DNA of 64,000 nt from Escherichia coli (lineage in GTDB: Bacteria; Pseudomonadota; Gammaproteobacteria; Enterobacterales; Enterobacteriaceae), in the NCBI RefSeq assembly GCF_016026235.1, contig NZ_CP065613.1. One strand, written 5' to 3'. Of the stretch, positions 10,418 through 59,902 are shown one piece after another. Numbering within the stretch: the first letter of the stretch is position 1; each line of letters begins with the position of its first letter. Position numbers and translations under genes: made by a program. The notes under the pieces are model-generated. The model searched no databases. It had not been told where the DNA came from and saw only the letters and a program-made list of their open reading frames with translations.

Positions 10418-10494
<77 letters not shown>

Positions 10495-10518
10495 TCACCG
10501 TACTGCTTTTACTTCATC

Positions 10519-10605
<87 letters not shown>

Positions 10606-10638
10606 TCACCGTACTGCTTTACTTCATCAAATTTTAAT

Positions 10639-10715
<77 letters not shown>

Positions 10716-48418: not shown

Positions 48419-50071
<1,653 letters not shown>

Positions 50072-50143
50072 GTAAAAAAGTTAGAACGGCAACGCGTACC
50101 CTGGGTACGCGTTGTTTGTCTGGAGTTTCAGTTTAACTAGTGA

Positions 50144-51457
<1,314 letters not shown>

Positions 51458-51475
51458 GACTGACTTTATCTGATT

Positions 51476-51508
51476 TAAAAATGCCAGCCTCCGGGCTGGC
51501 ATTTTTTA
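51476..51508. terminator. Rho-independent terminator (bidirectional) after eno
   Basis: aaaaaTGCCAGCCtccgGGCTGGCAtttttta: 8-bp GC-rich stem flanked by A and T runs. Confidence 0.8.
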
Positions 51509-51516
51509 TGGTTGAG

Positions 51517-52410
51517 TTACCAGCGGCCGGATGCGCCGCCACCTCCAGAAGAACCGCCACCGCCGCTAAATCCGCCGCCACTTGAGCCTCCACCGGAAGA
51601 GGATGAAGAAGAACCTTTTCTTGAAGCTCTTTCTTTACTGAGTTTTTTGTATTTGGCGCGTAGCTTTTTATTGACGATAAGCCAAAAAATAACCAGTGGT
51701 ACGATCGCAAAAGGCGTTAACATACCGCAGGCAACGATTAAATTGGTCCATGGTCCTGGCTCGGCAACATAGAGGAATACCATCCCGTAAATGGCGCCAG
51801 TGAGAGTGATCTAGGGTAAATTCGACGGATCGGTAAAAACAATAAAATATGAAAGTACCGCCAGCAATATAATTACAGCAAGCGATAATGGAATAGGGGG
51901 ATTGATACTGTAATAATCCCCCCTGTCTTCCGGTAATTCACCATTTAACAGAAGCGCGCCGATATTTTCGCTTGCCAGTGTTAATCCACCCATCAGGTCA
52001 TCACTTTTGAAGGCAGGGATCAATATATCCCTGATAATCTTCGCCGCTTGCAGGTCGGTAACCACCCCTTCCAGCCCGTAGCCAACCTCAATACGAACAG
52101 CATGATCCTCCTAGGCAACCAGAAGTAAAATACCATCGTTTCTCTGCTTATCTCCCAGTTTCCAGCTATCAAAAACCCTTGTAGCATATTGTTCAATGGA
52201 ATCGTCTCCGGTGGACGGCACTACTAATACAGCGACCTGCGCCCGTGTTTTATGTGTAATATCCTGCAGTTGCTGTGTCAGTGATTGTTGTTCAGAAGTG
52301 CTTAACGTACCAGTAATATCGGTCACCTGTTGGCGCAGTTCCGGCACAGCAATTTGCTGGGCAAGCCCAGGAAGGCACCACAAAGTGAATAGAATAAAGA
52401 TTAAGCGCAT
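51517..52410 (-). pseudogene. ygcG: TPM-domain protein (YgcG-like paralog 3) with two in-frame amber stops
   Basis: One continuous frame (signal peptide MRLIFILFTLWCLPGLA, TPM domain, TM region, Gly/Ser-rich tail ...GGGGSSGGGGASGRW) is broken by TAG at 52111-52113 and 51811-51813 (plus strand CTA); the first aligns to a conserved Trp in the paralogs (LLLVAWQDH). Confidence 0.7.
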
Positions 52411-52415
52411 TACGA

Positions 52416-53564
52416 TCACCAACGGCCGGATGAACCGCCGCCTCCTGAAGAACCGCCACCACCGCGGAAAGAATTTCTCGACGAAGAGCGAGAATGAGCA
52501 TTACGATTCCCCGTTTTCCTGTTGCTTTTTTCTCCTGACCCCAGCTTAAGATTGCCAGTAAATTTGGCCACAATGATCAGCAGAACGATGCCAGCAATGG
52601 TTATTGGGCCGATAAAATGATCAATTAACCCAATAATTGTTGAGATGAATGCAATATCTTTATTACTGGCGAACACCAGGCACCATCCCACAATAATTAT
52701 CAGCATCACGACAAACAATGAATTTCGTCCTGATTCACGAACCTGCGGAGTCTTCTTTTGTTTTTTCACTTTAGCGTTTTTATTTTTTGGGGGCAGCATC
52801 ATAGGAAATACGCGGCACATATTAAAAACTACCGCGAGACGCTGCTTGCAGGTTGTTGCTAACAATAAACTAAAACAAACGACCGATACCCGCCGAATGA
52901 TGACATCGTCCTGAAAGGAGAAAAACCAGACCATAGGGGTAATCATCGATATCATCCATATGCCACGCCGTGGGCGGCTGGCAAATCGCCAGAGGACAAC
53001 GATGGCAACGATCATCAGCAGTGTCCAGGCAAGACATGGCAGCGAACGTTGCGGATTAGCAAACAGATGATTGGCTAAAGCATCCAAAGGGCTAAGGTTC
53101 GCTTTGATATGGGTAAACTGTGCGATGCTTTCAATTCCGCCCGTTAATCCAGCAAAGAGATTGTTTTTTTCGAATTCTGGCTGCATATGGTAACGAACAA
53201 TTTGCGCAGCTTGTTCCGGCGGCAACATCTCTTCCAGTCCATGTCCAATCTTCATTGACGCCAGCCCTTCCGGCCAAACGACGAGAATTAAGATACCTTC
53301 GCCATATCGCTTCTCTCCAACGGGTTTCCAGTGATATACCCCGTAGCTCTGCGAGGCTGCAAGTTTAATGTTTTTGCCCCCTGTTGTCGGCGTAACCAAC
53401 ACGGCCACCTGGAAGTGGTTTTGCTGCTCGAGAGTCTGTAATTGTTGATTTAAAGCACTTTGTTCTTCTGTCGTTAATGTCCCGGTTAAGTCAGTCACTG
53501 AAGGCAATCGTTCAGCGAATACCTGAAAACCGCATAGCATCAGAAGTAAGAGAAAAATACGCAT
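52416..53564 (-). CDS. TPM-domain membrane protein (paralog 2), Gly/Ser-rich C-terminus
   Basis: 382 aa; signal peptide, TPM-like N-terminal domain, several hydrophobic segments, tail ...RGGGGSSGGGGSSGRW. Confidence 0.75.
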   Translation of the reverse strand: MRIFLLLLMLCGFQVFAERLPSVTDLTGTLTTEEQSALNQQLQTLEQQNHFQVAVLVTPTTGGKNIKLAASQSYGVYHWKPVGEKRYGEGILILVVWPEGLASMKIGHGLEEMLPPEQAAQIVRYHMQPEFEKNNLFAGLTGGIESIAQFTHIKANLSPLDALANHLFANPQRSLPCLAWTLLMIVAIVVLWRFASRPRRGIWMISMITPMVWFFSFQDDVIIRRVSVVCFSLLLATTCKQRLAVVFNMCRVFPMMLPPKNKNAKVKKQKKTPQVRESGRNSLFVVMLIIIVGWCLVFASNKDIAFISTIIGLIDHFIGPITIAGIVLLIIVAKFTGNLKLGSGEKSNRKTGNRNAHSRSSSRNSFRGGGGSSGGGGSSGRW

Positions 53565-53578
53565 ATCAATTCCTTTTG

Positions 53579-54472
53579 TTACCAGCGCCCGGAAGCGCCA
53601 CCGCCACCAGATGAACCGCCACCACCGCTAAAATTGTCATTGTCGAATGAAGAGGATGACGATGATGAATAGTGGGAGGAAGAATTGCTTCTTGTATGGC
53701 GTGATGGCTGGTTGGCATCACGCATCGAATCTCGAACCTTTTTGCCGAAGGGGGTAAAAGCGATGGCAACTGCCAGGAACGGTGTGGCGAAGCAGAGTAA
53801 TGTTGCGAGTACTCCCCAGCTTCCGCTGAAACCTGCTATAGGTAAAACAAAGGCCAGTACAATAGCTGCGAAACAAATTACTCCCAGCGTTTTGATATAT
53901 CCTCTGGCAGAAATAAACGTCAGTACTATCGCCCAGACTAACAAAGCCCACCAACCGCTAAAGGGTAAAGGGTGATCGGTCGGTGTTATCGTTGCTAAAT
54001 TATTCCCCGTCAGACGACTTTCAAGATCGCTGATCCCCTTTTGTAAACCGACAGCAAGATCGCCCTTTTTAAACGCTGGAATAATACTGTTGCGTATAAT
54101 TTGCCCGGACTGCGCATCCGTAATAATACCTTCCAGTCCGTAACCAATTTCAATACGCACGGTATGATCCTGCCAGGCGACTAACAGTAGAACGCCATCA
54201 TCGCGGTCTTTATCACCCGGTTTCCAGCTATCGAATACCCGCGTTGCGTACTGCTCGATGCTTTCATCGCCTGTTGTTTCAACCACTAACACGACCAACT
54301 GTGCGTGGTTTTTTTGCGTCAGGGCTTTGATCTGGTTGGTCAGGGTGTTTACTTCGCTATTTGTTAATGTGCCGGTTAAGTCATTCACATACCTGGGTGA
54401 TTCAGGTACTGGAATTTGTGTGGCAAACACAGATGAACAGAAGAAAGCCATAAGGAAGATAAAATTTCGCAT
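53579..54472 (-). CDS. TPM-domain membrane protein (paralog 1), Gly/Ser-rich C-terminus
   Basis: 297 aa from ATG 54472 (MRNFIFLMAFFCSSVFA signal peptide; GGGGAAG-type SD upstream); tail ...SGGGGSSGGGGASGRW. Confidence 0.75.
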   Translation of the reverse strand: MRNFIFLMAFFCSSVFATQIPVPESPRYVNDLTGTLTNSEVNTLTNQIKALTQKNHAQLVVLVVETTGDESIEQYATRVFDSWKPGDKDRDDGVLLLVAWQDHTVRIEIGYGLEGIITDAQSGQIIRNSIIPAFKKGDLAVGLQKGISDLESRLTGNNLATITPTDHPLPFSGWWALLVWAIVLTFISARGYIKTLGVICFAAIVLAFVLPIAGFSGSWGVLATLLCFATPFLAVAIAFTPFGKKVRDSMRDANQPSRHTRSNSSSHYSSSSSSSFDNDNFSGGGGSSGGGGASGRW

Positions 54473-54485
54473 AGAACTTCCCCGC

Positions 54486-55088
54486 TTAATGAGCACTAGC
54501 ATTCTGGCTAAAATCTATTGTTGGTGCTTTACTCACAGCGGCGACATCATCCGGCAAATAATTTTTCTTTGGTGTGTAATCCATGACCTTTGCGGTTAAC
54601 ACAGCGGGGAATTTGCGGATAGTGACATTATATTGTTCAATGGCTTTAATATATCTTCCTCGCGCAACGGCAATCCGATTTTCACTTCCTTCAAGCTGTA
54701 CCATTAAATTTTGATAGAGTTCCTGAGATTTTAACTCAGGGTAACGCTCACTAATTATCGTTAACTGACCGAGAGTGCGAGTCACCTGCGCTTGAGCCTG
54801 TTGCCAGGCTTGTAATTTTTGTTCATCTCCCGGAGTTTGCTGAAGATCGCTACTGGCGCGATTAGCCTGGCTACGAGCCAATGTTACGGCTTCCAGTACA
54901 TCTCGTTCATGGCTGGAATAACCTTTAATACTGGCGACAAGATTAGGAATAAGATAGGCGCGACGTTGATATTGATTCAATACCTCAGACCAGGAGGCGT
55001 TAACCTGCTCATCATAGGTTTGAATATCGTTATATCCACAGCCTGATAAATTGAAAATAAATATAATTACGATGAATATTCTGAGCAT
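54486..55088 (-). CDS. lemA: LemA-family membrane protein
   Basis: 200 aa; N-terminal hydrophobic segment with lipobox-like LSGCG; LemA-like body; first gene of an operon with the TPM genes. Confidence 0.75.
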   Translation of the reverse strand: MLRIFIVIIFIFNLSGCGYNDIQTYDEQVNASWSEVLNQYQRRAYLIPNLVASIKGYSSHERDVLEAVTLARSQANRASSDLQQTPGDEQKLQAWQQAQAQVTRTLGQLTIISERYPELKSQELYQNLMVQLEGSENRIAVARGRYIKAIEQYNVTIRKFPAVLTAKVMDYTPKKNYLPDDVAAVSKAPTIDFSQNASAH

Positions 55089-55260
55089 GTTTAAATCCCT
55101 TTTAATTAATTCCTTAAAACATAATACTCTGCTTCATTTTATTCTTTATGATCTAATCCACTTTTTGCCATAAACCTGCCTGTAACAGAATGTTAATAAG
55201 ACATGATTGTTGTGGCAGGATCTGCAATAATTAACAATTATCCACTTCACAGAGAATGCT

Positions 55261-55932
55261 ATGCAGTACCCGATTAACGAGATGTTCCAGACCCTGCAAG
55301 GTGAGGGTTACTTTACCGGCGTCCCCGCCATTTTTATTCGTTTACAGGGATGCCCGGTTGGCTGTGCCTGGTGCGACACCAAACACACCTGGGAAAAGCT
55401 TGAGGATCGGGAAGTCTCCCTTTTCAGCATTCTGGCGAAGACCAAAGAGAGTGATAAGTGGGGGGCGGCGAGCAGTGAAGACTTGCTGGCTGTCATTGGT
55501 CGCCAGGGATATACCGCGCGGCATGTGGTGATTACGGGTGGTGAGCCTTGCATTCATGATTTGCTGCCACTGACTGACCTGCTCGAAAAGAACGGTTTTA
55601 GCTGCCAGATCGAAACCAGTGGTACTCATGAAGTACGCTGTACACCGAATACCTGGGTTACCGTATCGCCAAAGCTGAACATGCGCGGCGGCTATGAAGT
55701 GTTGTCACAGGCACTGGAGCGAGCCAACGAAATCAAGCATCCAGTGGGACGCGTACGTGATATTGAAGCACTGGATGAACTTTTGGCGACGCTGACCGAT
55801 GATAAACCGCGAGTCATTGCACTGCAGCCGATTAGCCAAAAGGATGATGCCACACGTTTGTGCATTGAAACCTGCATTGCGCGTAATTGGCGTTTGTCGA
55901 TGCAAACCCATAAATATTTAAATATTGCCTGA
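55261..55932 (+). CDS. queE: 7-carboxy-7-deazaguanine synthase (radical SAM)
   Basis: 223 aa; cysteine motif CPVGCAWCDT; matches recalled QueE/YgcF. Confidence 0.9.
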   Translation: MQYPINEMFQTLQGEGYFTGVPAIFIRLQGCPVGCAWCDTKHTWEKLEDREVSLFSILAKTKESDKWGAASSEDLLAVIGRQGYTARHVVITGGEPCIHDLLPLTDLLEKNGFSCQIETSGTHEVRCTPNTWVTVSPKLNMRGGYEVLSQALERANEIKHPVGRVRDIEALDELLATLTDDKPRVIALQPISQKDDATRLCIETCIARNWRLSMQTHKYLNIA

Positions 55933-56059
55933 TTAAACATTTATAAGCGTTATAAATGGGGGGAACCTGTAAAGACTTCTACTCATTTATATTCTTTGTC
56001 GCCTCTGAAAAAGCTCCATTTTGCCCATCCTGGACTAATCATTATCATTCTCTACAAAT

Positions 56060-56270
56060 TCTGTGGCGTTAATTTTTTGTTGGAGTGAAAATTATTGCGG
56101 TAAAGTTTGGTAGATTTTAGTTTGTATAGAATTATTTTAAATATTTACCTTTTTAATCAATGAGTTAAGTGCTCTTTAACATAATGGATGTGTTGTTTGT
56201 GTGATACTGTAAAGTTGGTAGATTGTGACTGGCTTAAAAAATCATTAATTAATAATAGGTTATGTTTAGA
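56060..56270 (+). promoter_or_regulatory. CRISPR leader (AT-rich) of the type I-E array
   Basis: AT-rich sequence ending ...CTGGCTTAAAAAATCATTAATTAATAATAGGTTATGTTTAGA immediately before repeat 1, as in E. coli I-E leaders. Confidence 0.7.
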
Positions 56271-56523
56271 GAGTTCCCCGCGCCAGCGGGGATAAACCGA
56301 TGACAAAAATTTGCAGGTGCTGGCAGAGGCCGAGTTCCCCGCGCCAGCGGGGATAAACCGTCAGGTGGGATGGTCAGCGCGAAACACACGCCGAGTTCCC
56401 CGCGCCAGCGGGGATAAACCGAGCGCGCAGTTATCAGCCGCGACAACATGAAAGAGTTCCCCGCGCCAGCGGGGATAAACCGCTCATATACGTTACAGCG
56501 TCGGAAATGGAGGCGAGTTCCCC

Positions 56524-57815
56524 TGAGGAATCCCCAGAAAACAAGACAGGCATAGTGAGATGTGATCTAATTGATTGTGCTAACAATTTCAAGGAGATCA
56601 CCACTATGCCTGCACGTTCATTATGCCAAAATTTCCTTAACAACATACTGGCCCCTTTGCATCTTTACCGTCAAAAATCACTGATTGACGCAACTAATGC
56701 TGTAATAAATGGCGCTTCCCTCACACTTACCAGTATCGGGCGTCATTTAACCGGTACGGCATCAGTTAAAAACAAAATAAAGCGGGTGGATCGACTGTTG
56801 GGGAATCGACATTTGCAAAATGAGGTTTCCACCATTTTTCAGCGAATTACCCAAAAGATTACGCGGGGAATGTCTCGTGTTGTGATACTCATTGACTGGA
56901 GTGCTTATCATGCCTCTCGTTTTCAGCTTTTGCGGGCAAGCCTGGCATGTGACGGGCGTTCTTTACCGTTGATGAGTTGTGTCGTTCCATCATCACAGAC
57001 AGCGAATGCAGATGTACATGAGCGTTTTCTGGAATCGCTTGCTGAGTGCTTTTCCCCCGGGACTGATGTCATTGTTATTACAGATGCCGGTTTTCAGGGG
57101 CGATGGTTCCAACAGCTCCGCTCCCGTGGCTGGACCTATATTTGCCGGGTACTGGGCAATCATTATTACAATGTTGGTAATGGCTGGGAAAAGGTGTCGG
57201 ACTCAGGCACAAAAGCATCAACGACAGCAATTTATTTAGGTGAAGGCCTGCTGGGTCGAGATAAAAATGCACAACATGAAGGGCATTTTTATCTTTATAA
57301 AAGTAAGCCTAAAGGTCGTAGATTTAAACGCTCGAAGGAAAGAGCAACCAGACCATCGGTGACGGCTAAAGCTCGTACTGCCGGGAAATCACCATGGTTT
57401 ATTTTCACAAACAGTACTGAGTTCTCGCCAAAACAGGTAATGAAATTATACAGCCGTAGAATGCAAATTGAGCAAAATTTCAGGGATGAAAAAAATCCTC
57501 GCTGGGGATTTGGACTACGGTTTGGTGCCAGTCATTCATCCGGGCGGGTCACGGTATTGAGTCTGATCGCAACATTAGCCAGTATCATTATGTGGTTAAG
57601 CGGTTTCAGCCTGGAAAACAAAGGGATACATCATAAATATCAGGCAAATACAGTGAAGCACAGGCGAGTCATCTCGTTATTAAAACTGGCGGAGAATGTG
57701 ATTCGACATTCTCCACTCATACTAAACACACTGTCACTTGACGCAGGGCTGAAAGTTCTACAGCAACGGTATACCAATATGATAATGGTTTACTAAATTT
57801 TCTGGGGATCCCTCA
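56524..57815 (+). mobile_element. IS4-family (IS10-like) insertion sequence, copy 1, inside a CRISPR repeat
   Basis: ~1.29 kb; imperfect terminal inverted repeats CTGAGG(A/G)ATCCCCAGAAAA; flanked by a direct duplication of 10-12 bp of repeat sequence (GCGAGTTCCCC); one transposase ORF. Confidence 0.85.
56606..57796 (+). CDS. IS4-family DDE transposase (IS10-like)
   Basis: 396 aa from ATG 56606 (AAGGAG SD); shares recalled IS10 transposase motifs (KRVDRLLGNRHL, LIDWS, ITDAGF, YSRRMQIEQNFRD, YQANTV); the track ORF start at 56507 is read-through from spacer 4. Confidence 0.8.
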   Translation: MPARSLCQNFLNNILAPLHLYRQKSLIDATNAVINGASLTLTSIGRHLTGTASVKNKIKRVDRLLGNRHLQNEVSTIFQRITQKITRGMSRVVILIDWSAYHASRFQLLRASLACDGRSLPLMSCVVPSSQTANADVHERFLESLAECFSPGTDVIVITDAGFQGRWFQQLRSRGWTYICRVLGNHYYNVGNGWEKVSDSGTKASTTAIYLGEGLLGRDKNAQHEGHFYLYKSKPKGRRFKRSKERATRPSVTAKARTAGKSPWFIFTNSTEFSPKQVMKLYSRRMQIEQNFRDEKNPRWGFGLRFGASHSSGRVTVLSLIATLASIIMWLSGFSLENKGIHHKYQANTVKHRRVISLLKLAENVIRHSPLILNTLSLDAGLKVLQQRYTNMIMVY

Positions 57816-58316
57816 GGCGAGTTCCCCGCGCCAGCGGGGATAAACCACCATATAACCCGTTATCTCTTTCTCAAGTTTTTATATTAGCAGTACTTGTAAT
57901 AAGCAACATATCCACGTAACACCTCATGTTCAAAATAGTTCTCCATGCCAGAGAAGTTCACAATTATCGATACAAAAAATTAAGTTTAATCAAAGTATTA
58001 TTTGTATGATTCTTAAATCATTAAGAAATTTTAATATATTATTTTTTTAATATTAATTAATGCCTGTTAATTTTTGCTTAAGTATAACAGTGTATTTTTT
58101 AAGCTTGTTATTCATTGATTAAGTAATAAATCTGGAAGTTTGTCTTTGTTTTGAGGCTAATGAGTGGTTTTACATAACCGCCTCTATACGCTGTTGATGA
58201 ATAGTTCTTATGAATAAAGATATTCAGTTCATACTTTAAGTGAAAATTGATAAAGTGCGATTCGTATTGTCTTTTATTCTAAAGACATCGAGTGTAGTTA
58301 ATATTCCTTGTAAAAA

Positions 58317-58376
58317 CAGGGATAAACCGAACTAGTTAAAGTTTTTATTATGTTCCCCGCGTCAGCGGGGATAACC
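58317..58376 (+). repeat. Degenerate CRISPR repeat remnant
   Basis: cagggataaaccg, then ~22 bp, then GTTCCCCGCGTCAGCGGGGATAACC (diverged from the canonical repeat), preceded by ~450 bp of AT-rich sequence. Confidence 0.55.
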
Positions 58377-58423
58377 ATTCAGGTATGTTCAGGCCGGGCT
58401 GTTTCCCGCCCGGCCTTCCTCAC

Positions 58424-59902
58424 TTACGCATTCGACCAGCTCTGGATCGAATCCGCATTCCCCAATTCCCCATGCATCACTTCATACGATTTTTTCAGGA
58501 TCACATCAGTATGTTTGGTTAGGTCTTTGAAAATGCCTTTATTCATCGCGTCGTAGCGTTTGGCATTGCTCTCAACAGGCATAAAGATATCTTTCACGCG
58601 AACCATTTTGTCGACAGCCGTTGCGTAATCCGGGTATAGCCCCAGACCTACCGCCGTATTGATCGCTGCCCCCAGACTTGCACAACCGTTAATGGCGTTA
58701 CGGCGTGCCGGAAGGTTGAACACGTCGGCAAAAATTTGCATAAACAGATCGCTGTTCGAACCGCCGCCAGTAATGATCACATGCTTTGCAAAGTGATTCA
58801 TTTCATTACACATATTGTCGTAATTGTTCTTCAGCGTCAGCGCCACGCTTTCCAGTATCGAACGATATATCCATGCGTAATCCATGCTGGAATCAAAGCC
58901 GATCATAATCCCGCGTTTGTACGGTTCCCACGGATTGGTCAGCCAGTCCAGCACCGTCATCAGCCCATTACAGCCAGGTGGCACACTAGAGGCTTTCTTG
59001 TTGAGTAAATCTTCCGGTGAAAGATCCTGAGCCCTGGCATCCTGAATTAACGACTCGCCTAGCATGTCGCGCAGCCAGCTCACCGTCCACATGCCTTTGC
59101 GAATACCGTAACCTTCATACAGCAATGTTTGCGGAATAGAAGACATAATCGGCCAGTACGCCACCGGATCTTTCGGCAGTGCTTTGCCGTTCATCATCAA
59201 TGCGATGTAAGTGCCAAGAGAAATTACCGCAGTTTCATCATCCAGTAATCCGGCCCCCAGAGCTTCTACCGGTTTATCACTGGTGGTACAAACAACCGGC
59301 AGTCCTGCCGGGAAATGTGTCGCCAGTGCGGCTTGTGGTGTGATATGTCCGAGGACGGTGCCAGGCATTTGCACATCAAACAGCATATGACGGGGGATAT
59401 TAAACTTCTCCATTACCGCAGCATCTTCGCTCCATGCCCAGCTCTTATAATCCACCGGCCACTGACCAAAATAGTTGGCGATATTGTCTTTAAACTCGCC
59501 GGTTAAGCGATGCGTCAGATAACCCGAAAAAGAGGTGACATAGGCCACGTCAGGATTAGTGTGTTCGTAGGGACGCGTTACGCGTGCATCCTGCCAGCTA
59601 ATCAATGGCGCAGCTGGCGTGCCATCGGCTTTCAATAACGCACGGCAGCAACGGATGGATCCCAGACCAATACCGACAATATCTTCTTTATTCCCGGCAA
59701 ACTGACTCATCAAATCGTGACCGGCAAAACATAATGATGCCCATAAATCGTCGTCAGGATGTTCTGCGGTATCGGCATCTGGCGTGTGCATCGGCTGCAA
59801 TAAGCCTTTACCTTCGCAAACCACATTACCTTCCAGATCGTACATCACCACTTTTGTGCTCTGACTTCCGCCATCAATCCCTATGATGTATTTTTTCGAC
59901 AT
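58424..59902 (-). CDS. ygcE: FGGY-family sugar kinase YgcE
   Basis: 492 aa; MSKKYIIGIDGGSQSTKVVMYDLEG...; glycerol/xylulose-kinase-like. Confidence 0.85.
   Translation of the reverse strand: MSKKYIIGIDGGSQSTKVVMYDLEGNVVCEGKGLLQPMHTPDADTAEHPDDDLWASLCFAGHDLMSQFAGNKEDIVGIGLGSIRCCRALLKADGTPAAPLISWQDARVTRPYEHTNPDVAYVTSFSGYLTHRLTGEFKDNIANYFGQWPVDYKSWAWSEDAAVMEKFNIPRHMLFDVQMPGTVLGHITPQAALATHFPAGLPVVCTTSDKPVEALGAGLLDDETAVISLGTYIALMMNGKALPKDPVAYWPIMSSIPQTLLYEGYGIRKGMWTVSWLRDMLGESLIQDARAQDLSPEDLLNKKASSVPPGCNGLMTVLDWLTNPWEPYKRGIMIGFDSSMDYAWIYRSILESVALTLKNNYDNMCNEMNHFAKHVIITGGGSNSDLFMQIFADVFNLPARRNAINGCASLGAAINTAVGLGLYPDYATAVDKMVRVKDIFMPVESNAKRYDAMNKGIFKDLTKHTDVILKKSYEVMHGELGNADSIQSWSNA

Follow-up and report, generated by a model that had tools for sequence, protein, structure and literature searches.

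The LemA and TPM (YgcG-type) proteins are among the commonest bacterial envelope families without a mechanism. Members of both are encoded together between eno and queE in the stretch of Escherichia coli DNA considered here (64,000 nucleotides of contig NZ_CP065613.1, assembly GCF_016026235.1; referred to below as the window), where a lemA gene is followed by three TPM paralogs, named TPM1, TPM2 and TPM3. Among the described TPM proteins, YdjH of Bacillus subtilis, whose gene belongs to the pspA-ydjGHI operon, combines a TPM domain with a low-complexity segment and binds PspA and the flotillin-like YdjI (PMC8581546). Membrane foci of PspA and YdjI require YdjH, which is the membrane anchor of this cytoplasmic complex (PMC8581546; 10.1101/2020.09.24.301986), and comparative work has proposed a chaperone-like role of TPM proteins in the assembly of membrane complexes (10.1101/2020.09.24.301986). 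The TPM proteins TLP18.3, Psb32, LMTP1 and TLP26 help photosystem II repair or maturation; the fold as such has no consensus function (10.1101/2024.10.28.620569).

Less is on record for LemA. As of 2016, MamQ was the sole member of the family tied to a cellular process, namely magnetosome membrane formation (PMC4902198). In derivatives of JCVI-syn3.0, normal morphology needs the LemA-like gene 604 together with the adjacent lipoprotein gene 605 (10.1101/2020.10.07.326892). MamQ and the product of gene 604 are both membrane-anchored helical proteins of the LemA family that are genetically tied to membrane shaping. In E. coli K-12, the eno-queE site carries yqcG and ygcG; the region upstream of yqcG, which is common to the K-12 haplotype and to that of the window, binds PhoP~P and the sigma-S holoenzyme (PMC4974570; PMC4447067). 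The NCBI product name of YqcG is cell envelope stress response protein.

The locus in the window differs from each of these systems. Neither pspA nor Band-7 or zinc-ribbon genes were found in the operon or in its flanks (eno, queE, an array of clustered regularly interspaced short palindromic repeats (CRISPR) and an insertion sequence (IS) element), and the partner gene is lemA. The tail of YdjH ends in ...GAGAVF, as given by a primer sequence (PMC8581546), whereas the tails in the window are of the GASGRW type. LemA scores 87.2 bits against the MamQ equivalog model NF040966, where the cut-off is 250, and was ruled out as a MamQ equivalog; the window also has no magnetosome context. The TPM proteins were likewise ruled out as Psb32 equivalogs (NF047379, 31–32 bits, cut-off of 160), and, in contrast to the thylakoid-lumen setting of TLP18.3, Psb32 and LMTP1, the window has no photosystem. 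Unlike CcoZ and MSMEG_4692, which are TPM-like subunits of respiratory complexes, the products of the locus have no link to an oxidase operon.

The lemA-TPM operon and its Escherichia version

The four genes are oriented in the same direction and are located as follows:

lemA, 54486..55088, minus strand: 200-residue LemA-family protein with lipobox LSGC (Cys17) and the replacement D45Y in the RRADLIPNL motif
TPM1, 53579..54472, minus strand: 297 residues counted from MRNF, the open reading frame (ORF) reaching 54502; intact
TPM2, 52416..53564, minus strand: 382 residues; intact, with a degenerate TPM domain
TPM3, 51517..52422, minus strand: pseudogene; single frame of about 296–300 codons with an intact tail-coding end
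codons for the 17 C-terminal residues (tail) of TPM1, 53582..53632, minus strand: counterparts at 52419-52469 in TPM2 and 51520-51570 in TPM3

The genes constitute one operon, because the gaps between them are short (13 nt between lemA and TPM1, 14 nt between TPM1 and TPM2) or replaced by an overlap (4 nt, GTGA, between TPM2 and TPM3), and because in a consensus scan promoter- and terminator-like sites were not commoner across the interval than in shuffled sequence.

A scan with the LemA profile of one genome per species yielded 80 loci, which belong to Alpha-, Beta- and Gammaproteobacteria and Leptospira. A gene for a TPM protein of about 280–350 residues with the same architecture, termed TPM-A, adjoins lemA in 63 of them and lies downstream in nearly all cases. 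Most of these pairs then carry a gene for a protein of about 165 residues without a signal peptide, termed TPM-B, ending in …LPDRPVVL. In total, the loci encode 65 TPM-A and 57 TPM-B proteins. The C-terminus of TPM-A follows the pattern [FW]SGGGGx[FS]GGGGASGxW, the G, A, S and W positions of which are each kept in 58–65 of the 65 proteins. Shorter TPM proteins with a single helix and a distantly related sequence, likewise encoded beside LemA genes, have the same ending. TPM-B (57 loci; e.g., locus L033, 7638-8135) features an N-terminal R-H-L...FP and a C-terminal ...ELPDRPVVL motif and gave no match in NCBIfam. It is an undescribed subfamily and could be what the TPM-A tail binds in the cytoplasm. 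Going by names and chain lengths, TPM-A and TPM-B probably have their counterparts in BA41 and BA42 of Bizionia argentinensis. The pairing of LemA with TPM proteins also occurs in Klebsiella, Pseudomonas, Brenneria and metagenomic relatives. A search for Bacteroidota operons with the PG0361 sequence returned 15 matches only, with their taxonomy unassigned.

The operon in the window is the Escherichia version of this widespread lemA, TPM-A, TPM-B operon (COG1704 for LemA, COG1512 for the YgcG-type proteins). Two of the defining features are present: lemA immediately precedes a same-strand TPM-A gene, with a 13-nt gap, and the tail motif is carried by all three paralogs. The small TPM-B, of about 165 residues, is missing. 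A six-frame search of the window with hidden Markov models (HMMs) found neither TPM-B nor any further TPM ORF, and Escherichia albertii, in which the four genes recur in unchanged order, also lacks it. Compared with the canonical operon, the window thus has three tail-bearing TPM-A proteins and no TPM-B, and in one of the three, TPM2, the TPM domain is degenerate and the membrane region enlarged. The lemA-TPM operon itself is ordinary and widespread; these three tail-bearing paralogs and the missing TPM-B are what is particular here.

By profile comparison, the proteins are assigned to Pfam families PF04011 and PF04536, in agreement with the original prediction, which had described a LemA gene followed by three same-strand TPM paralogs. 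The coordinates, order and families given there stand; the third gene, however, is broken by two TAG codons. LemA matches PF04011 with an E-value of 3.5e-46 over model positions 1-149 of 149 and the Thermotoga maritima LemA structure (TM0961, PDB 2ETD) with 1.4e-30, and has an N-terminal membrane anchor followed by a helical bundle, as in TM0961. The lipobox residues G16 and C17 are invariant in an alignment of 15 proteobacterial LemA proteins (A1). The E-values against PF04536 are 4e-40 for TPM1, 1.1e-21 for TPM2 and 3.8e-38 for repaired TPM3, and both TPM3 fragments of the window still match the profile in an HMM search. The TPM proteins agree with the alpha/beta sandwich of the TPM fold.

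All three TPM frames contain a signal-like hydrophobic N-terminus, a TPM domain and hydrophobic helices beyond it, and end in GGGGSSGGGG(A/S)SGRW, as had been predicted (...GGGGSSGGGGASGRW in TPM1 and TPM3, ...GGGGSSGGGGSSGRW in TPM2). TPM1, TPM3 and K-12 YgcG are laid out alike, with a signal peptide, the TPM domain, three hydrophobic helices, a Lys/Arg cluster, a Ser-rich stretch and the tail. In TPM1, about three transmembrane helices are followed by a Ser-rich linker and the tail FSGGGGSSGGGGASGRW. TPM2 features a signal peptide, an enlarged multi-helix membrane region with a Lys-rich loop and the tail FRGGGGSSGGGGSSGRW. It retains 17 of the 32 TPM-A positions conserved at 90% or more, as against 26–28 in the other paralogs, and lacks the otherwise invariant G115 and D119. 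The TPM domain would be periplasmic and the Ser/Gly tail cytoplasmic according to the positive-inside rule, because three helices and then a Lys/Arg cluster precede the tail.

The TPM domain has disappeared altogether from a Klebsiella counterpart of TPM2. In Klebsiella, the eno-queE site holds lemA, TPM1 and a TPM2 gene without the TPM domain. The TPM2 ortholog of Klebsiella sp. (locus L006, 6534-7322) is a protein of 262 residues in which signal peptide, membrane part and tail persist. Over the signal peptide and the first 35 residues it shares 66% identity with TPM2; it then joins the latter at residue 129, and it ends in FRGGGGSSGGGGASGRW. It has no recorded Pfam or NCBIfam family. The tail motif is kept from Escherichia to Leptospira, on distant single-helix TPM proteins and on this TPM-less paralog.

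The three paralogs are 35–43% identical to one another, and all enterobacterial TPM domains form one clade in a neighbour-joining tree. On this sequence evidence, they descend from old duplications specific to the enterobacterial lineage, because paralog identity is low, E. albertii has the same gene order and the enterobacterial clade is single. Comparison of E. coli with E. albertii gave ratios of nonsynonymous to synonymous substitution rates (dN/dS) of 0.045 for lemA, 0.145 for TPM1, 0.27 for TPM2 and 0.13 for TPM3; intact copies of the genes are maintained by purifying selection. In their 17 tail codons, TPM1 and TPM3 have seven synonymous differences and no amino-acid change, while the tail of TPM2 has two amino-acid changes besides synonymous ones. 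Differences that are synonymous only, as between TPM1 and TPM3, indicate that the motif is kept by selection on the protein and not by gene conversion. Both recent tandem duplication and gene conversion were rejected in view of these tails and of the 35–43% identity.

Variation of the eno-queE interval in E. coli

The eno-queE locus differs between strains. Among 5,426 complete E. coli genomes, lemA is present in 1,454 and the whole four-gene region (at least 80% covered) in 1,102. Another 340 genomes carry lemA, a TPM1-like gene and an unrelated membrane ORF of 120 residues. The K-12-type ygcG core is found in 3,929 genomes at a coverage of at least 80% and in 4,290 with any match. K-12-type genomes have in this interval only ygcG and the 46-residue yqcG; the prediction that K-12 has only ygcG here was therefore right, with the addition of yqcG. 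The same prediction regarded the locus as a strain-variable tandem expansion. The variation is borne out, but the expansion is not recent, given the low identity of the paralogs, and it is the K-12 form that is reduced.

The K-12 yqcG-ygcG locus occupies the same site as the four genes and has in common with them the upstream region and the tail-coding 3′ end. Positions 55054-55330 of the window are 87.7% identical to the K-12-type region, including the first approximately 35 nt of lemA. On the queE side, the homology of the two haplotypes extends through the intergenic region into these 35 nt; on the eno side, it stops within the 82 nt coding for the tail. Gene yqcG (K-12-type locus L004, 2504-2644) overlaps the 5′ end of lemA and was aligned to window positions 55054-55121, and the residues IIFIF are common to YqcG (…KIIFIFSVL…) and the LemA signal peptide. 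YqcG is apparently what a deletion of lemA-TPM1-TPM2 has left of the LemA signal-peptide region, because the homology of the haplotypes covers the beginning of lemA. This would account for the origin of the K-12 small protein.

YgcG has the same architecture as TPM3 and an identical tail; the two proteins are 41% identical and are sisters in the neighbour-joining tree of TPM domains. Mosaic ygcG alleles are common in E. coli (e.g., P0267, P0289, P0231 and P0186). Over residues 1-80 they are identical to TPM3, whereas residues 81-290 follow the K-12 YgcG type; the crossover lies close to a conserved segment, IEQYATRVFD. In strain PEC403, lemA-TPM1-TPM2 is followed by a mosaic ygcG (locus L093, 1858-2730), and an IS4 insertion is also present. 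The sisterhood of YgcG and TPM3, the mosaics and the PEC403 arrangement show that ygcG is an allele of the third TPM gene, divergent and in some strains mosaic, and that K-12 has a derived arrangement, in which the 3′ part of lemA, TPM1 and TPM2 have been lost.

In many genomes, the annotation of the RefSeq Prokaryotic Genome Annotation Pipeline (PGAP) marks TPM1 as incomplete, partial in the middle of a contig and without its C-terminus (FDAARGOS_943, locus L001, 5402-6073; also loci L091, L092, L093 and L003). Upon translation, the ORF was found to be uninterrupted up to ...GGGGASGRW in six of seven genomes, with a real premature stop in F765 only. A common truncation of TPM1 was rejected as an annotation artefact.

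In this genome, the frame of TPM3 is interrupted by in-frame TAG codons at 52111-52113 (W100*) and 51811-51813 (W200*), which leave largest ORFs of 103, 84 and 88 residues. Both positions are TGG in FDAARGOS_943, the nearest complete E. coli genome, which is 99.9% identical over the region and four substitutions apart. The 88-residue C-terminal fragment is an exact match of SDY_2995 of Shigella dysenteriae Sd197, and the N-terminal fragment of 102 residues is likewise on record. TPM3 is thus a natural pseudogene and the window is S. dysenteriae type 1-like, since the fragments are identical to those of Sd197.

LemA carries the sequence RRAYLIPNL in place of the conserved RRADLIPNL, so its motif is not intact. 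Position 45 is D in 14 of the 15 proteobacterial LemA proteins of alignment A1, with Y in the window only, in 29 of the 30 sequences of a second alignment (A2) and in T. maritima 2ETD. The function of LemA may be impaired by this D45Y replacement; its family membership stands. With TPM3 dead by two amber codons and LemA altered, the lemA-TPM module is probably impaired in this strain.

The four differences from FDAARGOS_943 within the 3.7 kb region (51812, 52112, 53732 and 54868) all have T in the window and C in the other genome, that is, G to A on the coding strand, and two of them create the amber codons of TPM3. Over the other 50 kb there are about 27 differences with a mixed spectrum, and a signature of mutagenesis or editing was rejected on these grounds. 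The pattern of four C-to-T changes is probably due to chance plus relaxed selection.

Proposed function and alternative explanations

Taken jointly, the statements above on the identity and evolution of the operon are very likely to be correct. Its function calls for more caution. We propose that LemA, anchored by its lipid, would bind the membrane-embedded TPM proteins by their periplasmic TPM domains, and that the complex would sit on the cytoplasmic membrane facing the periplasm, where it could act as a non-enzymatic scaffold or chaperone in the maintenance of the membrane or of membrane proteins during envelope stress. The invariant cytoplasmic tail would be a docking peptide for a cytoplasmic partner, which might be TPM-B in canonical operons and another cytoplasmic protein in Escherichia. 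We put the probability of such a periplasm-facing membrane-maintenance scaffold at about 0.35–0.4, largely by analogy with the relatives described above.

A possible contact between the two proteins was modelled with AlphaFold2, using as input mature LemA, a 30-residue linker and the periplasmic domain of TPM1, with a 30-row alignment paired by locus. As a control, the same sequences were used with the TPM halves rotated among the rows. The locus-paired model reached a predicted template-modelling score (pTM) of 0.62 with a mean predicted local distance difference test score (pLDDT) of 72.9; the shuffled pairing gave 0.44 and 75.3. For two domains of such sizes that are well folded but not placed relative to each other, the estimated pTM is about 0.40. 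A paired pTM of 0.62 against this baseline and the 0.44 of the shuffled model means that the relative placement depends on correct pairing. The placement is moderately confident, and its dependence on pairing gives weak-to-moderate support to a co-evolving LemA-TPM interface.

Several points weigh against the scaffold. The AlphaFold2 comparison consists of one run each without predicted aligned error, and part of the pTM gap may be intramolecular, because the breaks in the LemA helices differ between the two models. TPM-B, the proposed partner of the tail, is missing from the window according to the six-frame HMM search. The module is dispensable, because about three quarters of E. coli have no lemA and S. 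dysenteriae tolerates the loss of TPM3. Under the classical Lol rule, a lipoprotein with Gly at position +2 is sorted to the outer membrane, and residue +2 of the LemA lipobox is Gly. The mechanism rests on analogy, because literature searches for LemA with TPM, ygcG, yqcG and the LemA family returned no functional study of the operon; many of the matches were namesakes, such as the B. subtilis yqcG toxin, LemA/GacS and authors named Lema. The module is accordingly still uncharacterised, as originally predicted. Finally, phosphatase or ATPase activities have been reported in vitro for BA42, BA41 and TLP18.3, according to titles cited in PMC9478572.

These activities, which are weak, are the starting point for an enzymatic explanation, in which the TPM paralogs would be periplasmic metal-dependent phosphatases or nucleotidases with LemA as an accessory, and the operon would hydrolyse periplasmic phospho-compounds. 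We regard this as unlikely. The lack of a consensus function for the fold (10.1101/2024.10.28.620569) stands against it, as does the fact that the in vivo roles of TPM proteins are so far those of accessory or assembly factors. TPM2 has lost invariant positions and its Klebsiella ortholog the whole domain, but membrane part and tail persist in both, which points to a non-catalytic core function; an enzyme would also leave the invariant cytoplasmic tail unexplained. It is quite improbable, too, that the interval is a variable envelope cassette diversified by an antagonist such as a phage, a colicin or a contact-dependent toxin, with inner-membrane proteins used for entry or as a block and the paralogs and alleles serving as alternative targets or decoys. 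Three haplotypes at one site, with flanks 88–97% identical and cores only about 41% identical in protein, would fit this explanation, and so would the mosaic ygcG alleles, the lemA-TPM1-TPM2-mosaic haplotype and the repeated inactivation of the locus (IS1 and IS4 insertions, the TPM1 stop in F765 and the two TPM3 stops here). However, the long-term dN/dS is well below 1 in all four genes, the operon has a stable place in the chromosomes of Proteobacteria and Leptospira, and the cassette itself contains no genes of mobile elements or defence islands. PADLOC-DB 2.0 has no family at E ≤ 0.1 for any of the four proteins, for which reason a reading as a defence system was also dropped, and an experimental link to a phage or toxin was not found.

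An explanation of another kind concerns the local status of the locus and is compatible with the proposed scaffold: in this genome, it could be a decaying relic without function. S. dysenteriae belongs to a lineage known for gene decay, and the TPM3 fragments match those of strain Sd197; the two nonsense codons, the replacement of LemA D45 at a near-invariant site and the proximity of an IS4-family element and a truncated CRISPR array point in the same direction. Conversely, lemA, TPM1 and TPM2 are still open reading frames, and a form with lemA plus one TPM gene exists in 340 E. coli genomes, Klebsiella and Pseudomonas, so the remaining genes could suffice. A relic is a possibility to be taken seriously, though not one that we favour.

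A broader version of the scaffold appears doubtful to us. According to it, LemA, TPM-A and, where present, TPM-B would form a widespread trans-membrane machine coupling the state of the envelope to membrane remodelling or division. The lipid-anchored LemA bundle would clamp the periplasmic TPM domains, and the tail would be a new cytoplasmic docking or assembly signal. The same activity might underlie the need for gene 604 in the shape of minimal cells, and the triplication and mosaics of Escherichia might reflect selection on the partners or antagonists of the machine.

Nothing here overturns expectations, and the weight of this particular copy is lowered by the partial inactivation of the locus. 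The module is a good entry point to two common families of unexplained mechanism. It now offers a canonical three-gene operon with its Escherichia variant, a C-terminal peptide of sharp conservation, open to mutation or to use as bait, support from modelling for a LemA-TPM contact and a natural comparison set made up of three haplotypes, the lemA-less K-12 form and the mosaics. If a role in membrane maintenance or shaping were true, E. coli with the four genes intact would be a tractable system for a question posed by both magnetosome biology and the minimal-cell project.

Flanking sequences and other features of the window

The operon is bounded by the following features:

queE-lemA intergenic region, 55089..55260: divergent; presumed promoter and 5′ region of the operon
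GC-rich hairpin GCCAGCC-cgga-GGCTGGC, 51477..51506: runs of T and A on either side; between the convergent eno and TPM3
eno, 50159..51457, plus strand: flanking gene
queE, 55261..55932, plus strand: flanking gene

The consensus scan found no promoter-like site within 55089..55260. A PhoP-box-like site with two mismatches is located at 55171-55187, although such sites (23 found, 15 expected) are not above chance. The hairpin was read from the sequence, is absent from the list of the consensus scan and is kept in K-12-type genomes; it is likely to be a bidirectional terminator common to eno and the operon. An Rfam scan of positions 50000-58500 gave no match.

Beyond queE, a CRISPR array at 56263-56482 contains four type I-E-like repeats (GAGTTCCCCGCGCCAGCGGGGATAAACCG) with a period of 61 bp; Rfam gave no match for this region at the gathering threshold. 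A gene for an IS4-family transposase (56507-57796; NF033591, 360 bits) starts 24 nt past the end of the array, which looks cut off by the insertion. At 10418-10715, the window contains three tandem tRNA-Met (CAT) genes with a 111-bp unit, as against two in FDAARGOS_943.

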